From a phage: a DNA stretch of 47,047 nucleotides. The DNA lies in sequence record OZ335955.1. One strand, 5' to 3'. Both the position numbers and the translations under genes were made by a program. The notes under the pieces are model-generated. The model searched no databases and had not been told where the DNA came from. It saw only the letters and a list, made by a program, of their open reading frames with translations. Positions 1 through 9,606 of the stretch are shown here, one piece after another (position 1 is the first letter of the stretch; the number at the start of each line of letters is the position of its first letter).

Positions 1-1425
1 ATGGCTAGAAAAAGACTCTCAAGTGTGGCAATCGAAAAACTTGAACAGGCGGTTGGAAACTCAACTTCAAAGCCTGAGTCTGCTGTATTTGGCATTGTTA
101 ACAAACTGCTTGCCGATGGTACGCCTAATGTTATAAAGCGCCTAAAAATGACATCAACAGGCGTATCTGAAACAAACGAAGAACCAACAATCATCATTCC
201 CGAGAGAATGGAATTACTGCTTTATCCTCGTCGTTTCAAAGTGTTCTATGGTGGTAGGGGGAGCGGAAAGACGGCTAACGTTGTTTCTTACCTCATCGAA
301 AAGGCAAGATTCCGTAACAGTCGCGTCGGATGCTTTCGTGAGATACAGAACTCAATCAAAGAATCAAGCTATGCCGAACTGGTTGATGAGATAAACAGGA
401 AAGGACACACTCAGGAATATCGTTGCGTGGATGGTGAAATAACCCACCATTCAACGAGGTCAAAGTTTGTTTTCCGTGGTTTGTGGCGAAATATAACCGC
501 CATTAAGGGTATGGCTGGCCTTACAGATGTATTCTGTGAAGAATCAGAAAATATCAGCCAGGTTTCATGGGATACGCTAATCCCAACAGTCCGCGCCGCT
601 GGCTCTGAAATTATTATTGTTTTTAACCCAAACAAAGAGACGGACCCGACATGGACTAACTTTGTTGCGCCTTATATTGACAAGATGGTAGATGGCATAT
701 ATCAGGATGATGATATCGTTGTTGTTAATGTTAACTACGTCCATAACCCGTGGTTCACGGAAGAGCTGAAGCAGCACATGAACCAGATGAAGGCTGTGGA
801 TTATGATCGCTACCTTTGGGTGTATGAAGGCTTATTCAACAAGCGGTCTGAAGAAGCTGTGCTTGGCGGGAAATGGCAAACGCTGGACTTCGATCCATCT
901 CCAGAATGGGGAGGTCCTTACTACGGCATTGACTTTGGTTTTTCTCAGGATGCAACAGCAGCAACAGAGTCATATGTAGAAGATTTGGGAGATGGGCGCA
1001 GGAATCTATATATCTACCGCGACTTTGCAAAGGTTGGCCTTGAGATAACTGACACACCGGAGGCGATGCGCTCAGCATTCCCAAATTCAGAGAAGTACAG
1101 ATGGTATGGGGATTGCGCTCGCCCTGAGACAATAAGCCATATACGCCGATCTGGATTCGATATTCATCCGTGCGCTAAGTGGCCGGGTAGCATTGAGGAC
1201 GGAATCACGTGGTTACGTGGGTGCGACAGGATTTACGTACACTCAAGATGCAGGCACGTCATTGAAGAGATGACAATGTACAGCTACAAGGTGGATAAAT
1301 TAACAGGGAACATACTCCCTGACATAGTTGATAAATACAATCACGCGATTGATAGCCTACGATATGGCCTTGGAGACCATATCGTCCAGCGCGGTAGCGG
1401 GATGCTAATCCGGCGCAGGAGATAA
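1..1425 (+). CDS. terL: terminase large subunit
   Basis: 474-aa ORF with Walker A-like FYGGRGSGKT near the N-terminus and large-terminase size; directly upstream of portal gene. Confidence 0.85.
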   Translation: MARKRLSSVAIEKLEQAVGNSTSKPESAVFGIVNKLLADGTPNVIKRLKMTSTGVSETNEEPTIIIPERMELLLYPRRFKVFYGGRGSGKTANVVSYLIEKARFRNSRVGCFREIQNSIKESSYAELVDEINRKGHTQEYRCVDGEITHHSTRSKFVFRGLWRNITAIKGMAGLTDVFCEESENISQVSWDTLIPTVRAAGSEIIIVFNPNKETDPTWTNFVAPYIDKMVDGIYQDDDIVVVNVNYVHNPWFTEELKQHMNQMKAVDYDRYLWVYEGLFNKRSEEAVLGGKWQTLDFDPSPEWGGPYYGIDFGFSQDATAATESYVEDLGDGRRNLYIYRDFAKVGLEITDTPEAMRSAFPNSEKYRWYGDCARPETISHIRRSGFDIHPCAKWPGSIEDGITWLRGCDRIYVHSRCRHVIEEMTMYSYKVDKLTGNILPDIVDKYNHAIDSLRYGLGDHIVQRGSGMLIRRRR

Positions 1426-1430
1426 AAATA

Positions 1431-1456
1431 AAGCCCTCAAATGAGGGCTTGTTTTT
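1431..1456. terminator. rho-independent terminator (bidirectional hairpin)
   Basis: aagccctc-aaat-gagggctt stem-loop followed by gttttt; sits between convergent genes. Confidence 0.6.
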
Positions 1457-1646
1457 AGTTTAGGTATGCTGCTCGACCGGCCATGTATCCAGATAAGTAC
1501 ATTTTAAACCATTCGTTGCACTCGCCCTGTTCGTAATAAGCGCCAATCTTCCACATTTCCTTATCTTCTTTATCAAAACGAAAGCGGCCTTTGCAATTCA
1601 TTTCGAAGGATTTCATAATCTCGTACCATTCTTTGCTGTATAACAT
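1455..1646 (-). CDS. hypothetical protein
   Basis: ORF-track 1455..1679; start refined to ATG at 1646, the first ATG downstream of the predicted promoter and preceded by GAGG/GGGGAA. Confidence 0.4.
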   Translation of the reverse strand: MLYSKEWYEIMKSFEMNCKGRFRFDKEDKEMWKIGAYYEQGECNEWFKMYLSGYMAGRAAYLN

Positions 1647-1677
1647 TTTTGTTCCCCAACCTCGTTTCAATAAGGTC

Positions 1678-7959: not shown

Positions 7960-8002
7960 CACCATTGTGATAGAATTAATCATTATTTGAACAGGAGGCA
8001 TA

Positions 8003-8281
8003 ATGAAACTATCGCAACGCGGCATGGAGACGCTTGGAATCACCGATGCCGTGGATATATCGCCTTACATCACCACTGACACAACGCAGAATCAGTTCGA
8101 CGCGCTGACAAGCCTTGCCACCGACATCGGCATTGACGTGTTCCGTAAATCAACACTTCTGAAGAAACACAACCTGCGCTGCTTCTCATGTGCTGTTGCG
8201 CATTTCATCGTGTGGGGTGAGAAGACTGACGACAAAGCTAAGCGCAAAACTGAAAAAGAGGTTTACTGGTATGGCTATTAG
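8003..8281 (+). CDS. lysozyme-like protein, C-terminal domain only (probable remnant)
   Basis: TQNQFDALTSLATDIGIDVFRKSTLLKKHNL...F..W matches the C-terminal half of P22 gp19 / T4 e-type lysozymes; N-terminal catalytic E/D/T region absent; strong RBS AGGAGG. Confidence 0.5.
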   Translation: MKLSQRGMETLGITDAVDISPYITTDTTQNQFDALTSLATDIGIDVFRKSTLLKKHNLRCFSCAVAHFIVWGEKTDDKAKRKTEKEVYWYGY

Positions 8282-8735
8282 CAAAAACATGAAGGCGTTT
8301 CTGGATATGCTGGCGTACAGCGAGGGCACGGATAACGGGCGACAGAAAACCAATAATCATGGTTATGATGTAATTGTTGGCGGCTCGCTATTTACTGACT
8401 ACTCAGACCACCCGAGAAAGCTGATTAGCCTGCCAAAGCTGGGTATCCAATCCACTGCCGCCGGACGCTATCAGGTGCTGGCTAAGTTTTATGACGCGTA
8501 CAAAAAGCAGTTGCGCCTGCCTGACTTCTCCCCCGCATCGCAGGACGCCATTGCAATGCAGCTAATCCGTGAATGCAAAGCAACCGCAGATATTGAGGCT
8601 GGTCGCATTGCCGATGCCATCCATAAATGCCGTTCCCGCTGGGCTTCGTTGCCGGGCGCTGGCTATGGTCAGCATGAGCAGAAACTGGATAAGCTGATTC
8701 AGGTATACAAGGCCGCTGGCGGAGGTGTGGCATGA
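8271..8735 (+). CDS. R: endolysin, lambda R-type
   Basis: ORF-track 8190..8735 starts at GTG; ATG at 8271; product MAISKNMKAFLDMLAYSEGTDNGRQKTNNHGYDVIVGG...WASLPGAGYGQ is near-colinear with lambda R. Confidence 0.85.
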   Translation: MAISKNMKAFLDMLAYSEGTDNGRQKTNNHGYDVIVGGSLFTDYSDHPRKLISLPKLGIQSTAAGRYQVLAKFYDAYKKQLRLPDFSPASQDAIAMQLIRECKATADIEAGRIADAIHKCRSRWASLPGAGYGQHEQKLDKLIQVYKAAGGGVA

Positions 8736-8971
8736 AAAAGCTAAGCAACTGGCTGCTCGGCGCGTGGATTTCGTTCTGCTCGCTGTTGCAGCTATGGCCT
8801 GATGCAATGATGCATGTATGGGTAATGATGCCGGATGACCTGAAATCAGCACTACCGCCAATCGTGGTTAAAGGGGTGAGCTATTCAATCATGCTGGTTG
8901 GTATTCTCACCAAAATGCACGGCATGAGGAAGGAAAACCGGAGGTTGCGCAATGATGTCGATTCTCGCTAA
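8732..8971 (+). CDS. holin candidate (two-TM membrane protein)
   Basis: 79 aa, two hydrophobic helices and charged C-terminus; ATGA overlap with endolysin stop; lies between endolysin and spanin. Confidence 0.45.
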   Translation: MKKLSNWLLGAWISFCSLLQLWPDAMMHVWVMMPDDLKSALPPIVVKGVSYSIMLVGILTKMHGMRKENRRLRNDVDSR

Positions 8972-9449
8972 ATACTGGCGACCGCTGGCAATTATTATAA
9001 TTGTTGCCGCTGGCGCGCTGTGGGCAGCAAATAAAGTATCAAGCTACGGCGAACAGCAATACGCCGCCGGGTATGCAAAAGCAGTCGCCGAACAGAAGGC
9101 CGCAGACGAACAAGAGGAGCAACGACGCAATGCAGAACTGCAAAAGATTCAGGCCGACGCACAGCAAAGGATTGACGCTGCGCGCAATGACGCTGTCAAT
9201 GCTGCTGCTAAGTCTGGCAGGTTGCAGCAACAGCTCGCAAATATCCGCAAGCAGCTCATCGGATATTCCACCGCTGAGTCCATTGGCAATCCAGCCGCAA
9301 AAACCGGAGTTTTGCTTGGAAACGTGCTCAGCAAATCTGTCGAAAGAAATCGACAACTGGCAGATTACGCTGACAGGGCAAGAGAAGCAGGATTAGCGTG
9401 TGAGGCACAGTACAATTCATTGAGGGCGGGGAATGCTAAGCAGAGATAA
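8952..9449 (+). CDS. i-spanin (Rz-like)
   Basis: N-terminal TM helix then Ala/Gln/Glu-rich coiled-coil periplasmic domain; GGAGG RBS. Confidence 0.7.
   Translation: MMSILAKYWRPLAIIIIVAAGALWAANKVSSYGEQQYAAGYAKAVAEQKAADEQEEQRRNAELQKIQADAQQRIDAARNDAVNAAAKSGRLQQQLANIRKQLIGYSTAESIGNPAAKTGVLLGNVLSKSVERNRQLADYADRAREAGLACEAQYNSLRAGNAKQR
9187..9396 (+). CDS. o-spanin (Rz1-like lipoprotein), embedded in +1 frame of the i-spanin gene
   Basis: ATG at 9187 inside ORF-track 9001..9396; MTLSMLLLSLAGC lipoprotein signal with lipobox, Pro-rich mature region. Confidence 0.7.
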   Translation: MTLSMLLLSLAGCSNSSQISASSSSDIPPLSPLAIQPQKPEFCLETCSANLSKEIDNWQITLTGQEKQD

Positions 9450-9581
9450 ACGAGAAGAGTATGACAAGATGGCTTCTGATGTGGCAAGTGGTCGCGCTGG
9501 TTATCAGTCTGCGGTGAAATGCAGGCTAAGCAAATCACCAAAGAAATGCTATGGAAAACCACCTGAATCACTGCAATAAAA

Positions 9582-9606
9582 AAGCCCCGTAATGGGGCTT
9601 GTGTTT
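9582..9606. terminator. rho-independent terminator (bidirectional)
   Basis: aagcccc-gtaat-ggggctt hairpin flanked by A-run upstream and gtgttt downstream. Confidence 0.55.

Follow-up and report, generated by a model that had tools for sequence, protein, structure and literature searches.

In phage lambda, the gene of the outer-membrane spanin subunit (o-spanin, Rz1) lies wholly within the gene of the inner-membrane subunit (i-spanin, Rz), in the +1 frame. The same arrangement has been catalogued in phages whose spanins belong to another sequence family. Indeed, the pair of Salmonella phage Vi II-E1 (E1 hereafter; VIP0009/VIP0010) is listed as 'emb' in SpaninDB, in the Bcep176 family, and the supplement of the catalogue gives its 88-amino-acid (aa) o-spanin sequence together with a ribosome-binding site (RBS; PMC6139136). 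This family, to which epsilon15, phiV10 and SPC32H also belong, is distinct from the Lambda family (Kongari et al. 2018, PMC6139136). The homologous pair of Salmonella phage Skate (CPT_Skate_018/019) has likewise been described as embedded (PMC6606912). Here, we analyze the spanin locus found at positions 8952 to 9449 of a stretch of phage DNA of 47,047 nucleotides (nt; sequence record OZ335955.1), which, taken at its full length, we call the window. Such a spanin pair is already known: it is an ordinary, catalogued lysis module, the close relatives of which have been annotated or catalogued since 2018-2019.

From the sequence of this Skate-like enterobacterial siphophage, we consider it very probable that the gene at 8952..9449 encodes one subunit of a two-component spanin and the gene embedded in its +1 frame the other. 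Within the lysis cassette, this spanin would be the last component to act. The closest genomes are those of phages KFS-SE2 and Skate (about 90% identity over about 73-75% of a 24-kb sample). A preliminary description of the window had proposed a spanin pair with an o-spanin fully embedded in the +1 frame, and family matches, conservation, and catalogued homologues all agree with this proposal. We observed directly the two open reading frames (ORFs) with their signals and family matches, as well as their conservation and a frame-specific constraint acting on the embedded frame (Table 1 for the coordinates). Both proteins fall into the Bcep176 i-spanin and o-spanin families of SpaninDB through E1, which is listed in both; the clustering rule of this catalogue asks for 40% identity or more to a family member, over 40% of the length or more (PMC6139136).

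The i-spanin ORF is present with the N-terminal transmembrane (TM) helix that had been proposed for it, the Kyte-Doolittle maximum over 17 residues reaching 2.01 at residue 11. Its product matches Pfam DUF2514 (PF10721) over almost the entire profile (7.2e-30; 104.6 bits for a cut-off of 26, and so above the gathering threshold; profile positions 1-160 of 161), as well as PHROG 312, 'Rz-like spanin' (3.5e-50), and PF10721 is carried by all 120 i-spanin homologues listed. In an AlphaFold2 model built from 25 sequences, a helix covering residues 4-109 is followed by a low-confidence stretch (105-118) and by a second helix (115-164). Together with the hydropathy profile, this model gives the layout expected of an i-spanin, i.e., one N-terminal TM domain and then a largely helical periplasmic domain (PMC6139136). 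A crude heptad count is positive over residues ~57-110. The protein contains a single cysteine, C150, which is invariant among the relatives. Searching the PDB sequences with the i-spanin profile returned nothing relevant, the top match being an unrelated designed repeat protein (E = 0.26).

The +1 frame of the i-spanin gene is free of stop codons from 9001 to the stop at 9394-9396, and its in-frame start codons are ATG at 9130, 9187, and 9199, and TTG at 9172. The ORF of 69 codons that had been noted from ATG 9187 (MTLSMLLLSLAGC...) does exist with exactly this length, in this frame and with this stop, and the lipobox LAGC is encoded where it had been seen; this lipobox fits the consensus [LVI][ASTVI][GAS]C (PMC6139136). 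The residue that follows the lipobox cysteine is Ser and not Asp. The embedded product is thus predicted, from its sequence, to have what characterizes an o-spanin: a small size, a lipoprotein signal, a lipobox, and a +2 position without an inner-membrane retention residue. Whichever of 9130..9396 or 9187..9396 is considered, its frame lies entirely inside the i-spanin frame. The mature part was said to be Pro-rich, which goes too far: among its 57 residues, only five are Pro (9%), clustered in IPPLSPLAIQPQKP, for 11 Ser. Two cysteines of this part, Cys 31 and Cys 35 (codons at 9313 and 9325), are invariant among the relatives, so that both subunits possess conserved periplasmic cysteines, with i-spanin C150 on the other side, able to form putative disulfides. 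The embedded ORF has its family match in PHROG 11621 ('Rz-like spanin', 3e-32), and E15-like, Klebsiella, and Pectobacterium phages share its C-terminal motif. Against Pfam and NCBIfam, the o-spanin gave no usable match, only sub-threshold alignments to lipoprotein signal peptides.

The conservation of the embedded frame was followed in 27 distinct relatives taken from IMG/VR, whose i-spanins (Rz) are 64-94% identical to that of the window. All 27 retain the ORF, the lipobox, and a stop located within the i-spanin gene; the lipobox is LAGC in 26 of them and LVGC in one, and its cysteine is invariant. The i-spanin gene bears the mark of a second frame. Indeed, its nucleotide diversity at third codon positions is 0.31 and 0.40 at the two non-overlapped ends, versus 0.13, 0.125, and 0.20 in the overlapped segments. 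Moreover, none of the three o-spanin cysteines (that of the lipobox and the two periplasmic ones) varies, even where the i-spanin codons that overlap them do, the i-spanin codon diversity over the Cys codons 9313 and 9325 being 0.14 and 0.48, respectively. Further downstream, the pattern flips: the i-spanin motif SVERNRQLADYADRAREAG is conserved and the o-spanin is variable. Such a complementary conservation between frames has been described for embedded spanins by Kongari et al. (PMC6139136). In two IMG/VR uncultivated viral genomes (UViGs 2974773671 and 2974773212; L031 and L032), the first half of the i-spanin and the o-spanin signal peptide are nearly identical, and the i-spanin from residue ~92 onward (its second half) and the mature o-spanin have strongly diverged, from just past the lipobox. 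This looks like a recombinational swap of both interacting C-terminal domains as one DNA unit.

Where the o-spanin starts is a separate matter. The preliminary description had the embedded ORF begin at 9187; ATG 9130, which lies 19 codons upstream and in frame, is better supported by its Shine-Dalgarno (SD) sequence, by the length and charge of the resulting signal peptide, and by distant relatives, and, as read from the sequence, it is probably the start (88 codons, with a signal peptide of 31 residues). ATG 9130 is found in all 28 sequences. The SD sequence GAGGAG that precedes it is made of two i-spanin Glu codons, which are GAG in 28/28 and 27/28 sequences, while elsewhere in these genes Glu is encoded by GAA in 172 cases out of 262 (66%). 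Both SpaninDB and the Skate annotation mark the same RBS and use the equivalent of the 9130 start (88 aa, 31-residue signal, 57-residue mature part). Citrobacter phage K1M has GTG in place of ATG 9130 and the same SD sequence. In an E15-like podophage, in Pectobacterium phage CB1, and in the Flyfo siphovirus Tbat1_6, the i-spanins have diverged and an SD-preceded ATG still stands 25-32 codons before the lipobox cysteine.

The signal peptides make the same distinction. From 9130, the signal comprises 31 residues, with five Lys/Arg and no acidic residue, and the cysteine is residue 32; from 9187, there are 12 residues before the cysteine and no Lys/Arg. The PROSITE lipoprotein rule places the cysteine at position 15-35 and a Lys/Arg within the first seven residues; a start at 9187 therefore falls outside the usual range of lipoprotein signals. 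It is unlikely, although it deserves to be weighed, that the embedded gene is real and starts at ATG 9187 (69 codons) or at TTG 9172 (74 codons), in which case only the signal peptide would differ. These codons are conserved as well, ATG 9187 in 27/28 sequences and TTG 9172 in 28/28, but the nearest SD-like element, AAAGGA (9166-9171), is 15 nt away from 9187 and abuts 9172 without any spacer, while GAGGAG is well placed for 9130. Weak, sub-threshold NCBIfam alignments (YgdI/YgdR and RcsF signal peptides) begin at residue 17 of the 88-aa form, so that a signal of ordinary length would begin near 9172-9178. Indeed, in most relatives an ATG at 9175 would give a textbook signal of 17 residues (MLRAMM...LAGC), but this codon is ACG in the window.

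Several observations weigh against the choice of 9130. A lipoprotein signal of 31 residues is long, and internal ATGs are present (9187 in the window, 9175 in 23/28 relatives). Over 9130-9186, the amino-acid diversity is lower in the i-spanin (0.05) than in the o-spanin (0.15), where non-conservative changes are found (P/L/Q/S, T/M/K/A). Since the i-spanin is highly conserved over this segment, the conservation of ATG 9130 can be partly attributed to the Asn-Ala of the i-spanin. Thus, amino-acid conservation did not separate the starts, and we retain 9130 because of its SD sequence, the signal-peptide rules, and the distant relatives. The mature lipoprotein is identical whichever start is used. 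We also considered that the o-spanin could be made from several in-frame starts (9130 and 9187, or 9175 in most relatives), which would yield long and short precursors. The first of these candidates has a strong SD sequence and adds a 19-residue extension that is highly basic. What the data show is the conservation of several in-frame start codons, which is inseparable from the constraint on the overlapping i-spanin codons. We regard such a dual start as improbable; were it true, the precursors would differ in their export kinetics and serve as a timing device, in the manner of the dual-start motif of holins.

Whatever its start, the embedded frame has to be distinguished from a frame that is open by chance. 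We performed 5000 synonymous-codon permutations within the i-spanin gene, holding its protein and its codon usage. A lipobox ORF at signal-peptide distance was obtained in only 13 of the 5000 permutations (0.26%). Other results temper the assignment. A +1 ORF starting with ATG and of at least 69 codons arose in 23% of the permutations, the figure being 8% for 88 codons or more; the longest +1 open stretch averaged 86 codons. Moreover, the codon-aligned antisense frame is open over 80-155 codons in all 28 sequences, with drifting boundaries and no sign of being a gene. The +1 frame of a gene rich in Ala, Gln, and Glu is often open by composition, so ORF length and persistence alone prove little. 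Among the observed variants that are synonymous in the i-spanin, none of 64 creates a stop in the o-spanin frame, versus 6.8% of the possible ones (P about 0.011), but this test is confounded, as most stop-creating synonymous changes also yield rare codons (ATA, CTA, GTA) in the i-spanin. The AlphaFold2 model of the i-spanin is only moderately confident (mean predicted local distance difference test score of 70.9, predicted template modeling score of 0.27), and a monomer cannot show a coiled coil. Finally, searching the literature for DUF2514 spanins found no experimental work, the matches being phage-characterization papers only.

ORF length was considered as evidence for the embedded gene and rejected, since both the permutations and the antisense control show that composition yields long frames. 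In the window, the antisense ORF of 105 codons that lies inside the i-spanin gene (9039..9356, minus strand) is a composition artifact, the codons TTA, CTA, and TCA being scarce in the latter, and not a gene. That the +1-frame ORF would be a by-product of codon composition too, the outer membrane being disrupted otherwise or by the i-spanin-like protein alone, is most improbable, given the rarity of lipobox ORFs among the permutations, the lipobox, stop position, and cysteines kept even where the i-spanin varies, the match to a PHROG family of annotated o-spanins, the drop of third-position diversity inside the overlap, and the recurrence of the C-terminal motif in phages as unrelated as siphophages, E15-like podophages, and N4-like Pectobacterium phages. 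It is true that the exact o-spanin, in its 88- or 69-aa form, is absent from a collection of ~15 billion predicted proteins, i.e., that gene calling did not yield it on this phage, and that the i-spanin is there only as a 'DUF2514 domain-containing protein'. Gene callers are known to be biased against genes that are embedded (PMC6139136), which explains this absence. At NCBI, the exact i-spanin protein is recorded as WP_322539963.1, 'DUF2514 domain-containing protein [Sphingomonas sanguinis]'. Sphingomonas sanguinis is an unlikely host, as the relatives of the phage infect Salmonella, Escherichia, and Shigella, which suggests that this record reflects phage DNA carried into the assembly.

The comparison with E1 is the closest one. 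The i-spanins are 91% identical over 158 of 165 residues and the o-spanins 89% identical over 88 of 88, and the two loci share the +1 embedding, the RBS, the 31-residue signal, the SLAG/C lipobox, the 57-residue mature part, the two periplasmic cysteines, and the order of the cassette. They differ by ten o-spanin substitutions and by the end of the i-spanin, which is ...RAGNAKQR in the window (165 aa) and ...RNKKAP in E1 (163 aa); in addition, ~125 nt of the window (9450-9572) are absent from E1. In Skate, the same five genes are annotated, including an 'I-spanin' and an 'O-spanin' (PMC6606912). Gene order and annotated RBS positions are the same as in the window, and the o-spanins are 82% identical over 88 residues. 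Skate differs by its sequence only, the C-terminus of its i-spanin being shorter and the 9450-9572 segment missing.

The locus had also been called lambda Rz/Rz1-type, and this holds for its architecture and not for its sequence family. As in lambda, the embedding is complete and in the +1 frame, the o-spanin is a small predicted outer-membrane lipoprotein, both subunits have periplasmic cysteines, the spanins come last in the cassette, and the endolysin is homologous to lambda R. The predicted layout of the i-spanin (TM helix, helix, linker, helix) also resembles that of lambda Rz, in which a TM domain is followed by CC1, a flexible linker, and CC2 (PMC6139136). On the contrary, no sequence relationship is detectable: neither protein matched the lambda families Pfam PF03245 (Phage_lysis) and PF06085 (Rz1) up to E = 1, and the SpaninDB families are separate. 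The signal peptide (31 residues) is longer than that of lambda Rz1. The mature part of lambda Rz1 comprises 40 aa and is strongly Pro-rich, whereas that of the window is longer (57 aa) and Ser-rich.

A more distant case is that of the N4-like Pectobacterium phage CB1 (NC_048653.1), in which HWB08_gp58 and an unannotated +1 ORF follow an endolysin and a holin in the same order. The i-spanin is 35% identical over its full length and the o-spanin 49% over 49 residues, including FCLPTCS.NLS.EIDNW. As in the window, its o-spanin has an SD-preceded ATG, here 32 codons before the lipobox cysteine. Unlike in the window, the o-spanin ORF ends 22 nt beyond the i-spanin stop (1330..1656 versus 1137..1634 for Rz, in the coordinates of the CB1 locus that we extracted), and the two genes are overlapped and not embedded. 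Thus, E15-like phages, Flyfo Tbat1_6, and Citrobacter K1M keep the ORF, the lipobox, and the internal stop, whereas CB1 keeps the ORF and the lipobox only. In the catalogue of Kongari et al. (2018), no family mixed embedded members with overlapped or separated ones (PMC6139136); the o-spanin family that includes CB1 may be a case mixing embedded and overlapped members.

Table 1. Coordinates of the spanin genes, their signals, and the neighboring features of the lysis cassette in the window.
Feature	Position	Strand	Remarks
Cassette gene 1	8003..8281	+	92 aa; labelled 'endolysin/glycosidase' in Skate; AGGAGG 5 nt before ATG
Endolysin, lambda R type (lytic transglycosylase)	8271..8735	+	154 aa; homology to lambda lysozyme, PHROG 90
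Holin candidate	8732..8971	+	79 aa; PHROG 13249 holin 3.4e-51; Pfam DUF7940 6.6e-09
i-spanin SD sequence GGAGG	8940..8944	+	7 nt before ATG 8952; same RBS marked for E1 in SpaninDB
i-spanin gene (Rz-like)	8952..9449	+	165 codons and stop; DUF2514, PHROG 312
i-spanin TM helix codons	8976..9029	+	~residues 9-26/27, WRPLAIIIIVAAGALWAA; Kyte-Doolittle
o-spanin SD sequence GAGGAG	9114..9119	+	10 nt before ATG 9130; Glu55-Glu56 in the i-spanin frame
o-spanin gene, likeliest extent	9130..9396	+	88 codons and stop, +1 frame, wholly inside the i-spanin gene; precursor MQNCKRFRPTHSKGLTLRAMTLSMLLLSLAG/C...
Lipobox L-A-G-C	9214..9225	+	Cys codon 9223-9225; predicted lipidated first residue of the 57-aa mature part; next residue Ser
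o-spanin mature periplasmic part after the lipid-bearing Cys	9226..9393	+	Ser-rich stretch, Pro cluster IPPLSPLAIQPQKP, two invariant Cys in FCLETC
GC-rich hairpin AAGCCCCGTAATGGGGCTT	9582..9600		T-runs on both strands; terminator scan, both strands

The spanin genes stand in a lysis cassette, with an endolysin of the lambda R type and an ORF of a holin family immediately upstream. Four plus-strand ORFs form the downstream end of a compact operon, adjacent genes overlapping by 11, 4 (ATGA), and 20 nt, and the spanin pair is the final unit of this tightly overlapping endolysin-holin-spanin operon, with a terminator after it. The order endolysin, holin candidate, and spanins, which had been noticed as different from the lambda order S-R-Rz (holin, endolysin, spanins), is indeed that of the window and is common to all the annotated relatives examined, i.e., Skate, E1, Flyfo Tbat1_6, Citrobacter K1M, and Pectobacterium CB1. 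It is a trait of a mobile cassette and not of one phage. Upstream of the cassette, a sigma-70 promoter scan gave no plus-strand match by the scan criteria; a possible extended -10 (TGATAGAAT, ~7961-7969) is a sighting by eye only, which we do not claim.

The endolysin aligns with the lambda lysozyme structures 3D3D and 1AM7 over residues 3-153 (E = 1.5e-60) and with the PHROG 90 endolysins (1.9e-56). It is devoid of an N-terminal hydrophobic segment, the maximum hydropathy over 19 residues being 0.38. By hydropathy, the holin candidate has two hydrophobic segments (~residues 5-23 and 40-60), and its C-terminus is basic. Its gene begins within the stop of the endolysin gene and runs past the start of the i-spanin gene, and its Skate homologue is annotated as a 'class II holin'. 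The product of the first cassette gene is related only to the C-terminal half of the GH24 (T4/P22-type) phage lysozymes: it matches Pfam PF00959 over profile positions 55-110 of 125 (1.8e-09) and PHROG 10457 (7e-41), and its alignment with lysozymes of the PDB is confined to chain residues ~107-174. It is without the usual N-terminal catalytic region of the GH24 lysozymes. The Skate record assigns an 'Ex5Dx8T motif' to its homologue. The gene has a strong SD sequence, overlaps the next gene, and is retained and annotated 'endolysin' in all the close relatives. It may be the remnant of a replaced endolysin or encode an accessory protein.

Downstream of the spanin genes, the hairpin is likely a two-way terminator, at which the lysis cassette would end on one strand and the converging genes on the minus strand. 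Nearly all of the relatives' loci conserve it, and the Skate annotation has a terminator at this position. Between the i-spanin stop and this terminator, the segment 9450..9572 (~125 nt) is present in only four of the loci that we retrieved, most relatives, E1 and Skate included, being without it, and it co-occurs with the alternative i-spanin C-terminus ...GNAKQR (versus ...NKKAP). A conserved ORF of 48 codons (9433..9579, plus strand) lies in this segment and matched no PHROG, Pfam, or NCBIfam family; a small minus-strand ORF after the spanin genes (9365..9571) matched no PHROG family.

On the basis of the work on lambda Rz/Rz1 and T4 PseT.3/PseT.2 summarized in PMC6139136, from which we infer export, lipidation, complex formation, and membrane fusion, the pair would function as a spanin in outer-membrane disruption in the following way. 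The N-terminal helix of the i-spanin would anchor it in the inner membrane, and its two long helices, with the flexible linker between them, would reach into the periplasm. The o-spanin, most likely translated from ATG 9130, would be exported by its 31-residue signal peptide, lipidated on the cysteine of the LAGC box, and then cleaved by signal peptidase II. As its +2 residue is Ser, its destination would be the outer membrane, in the inner leaflet. Across the periplasm, the two proteins would bind to each other by their C-terminal parts, in a complex probably stabilized by homotypic disulfides through the conserved cysteines. The holin would release the lambda-R-type endolysin, leading to the destruction of the peptidoglycan mesh; the spanin complexes thus freed would collapse, fusing the inner membrane with the outer one and releasing the progeny phage.

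For the biology of spanins, this pair brings nothing new. Its value is mainly one of annotation: recording the two genes, with the o-spanin starting at 9130, completes the lysis cassette of this phage.

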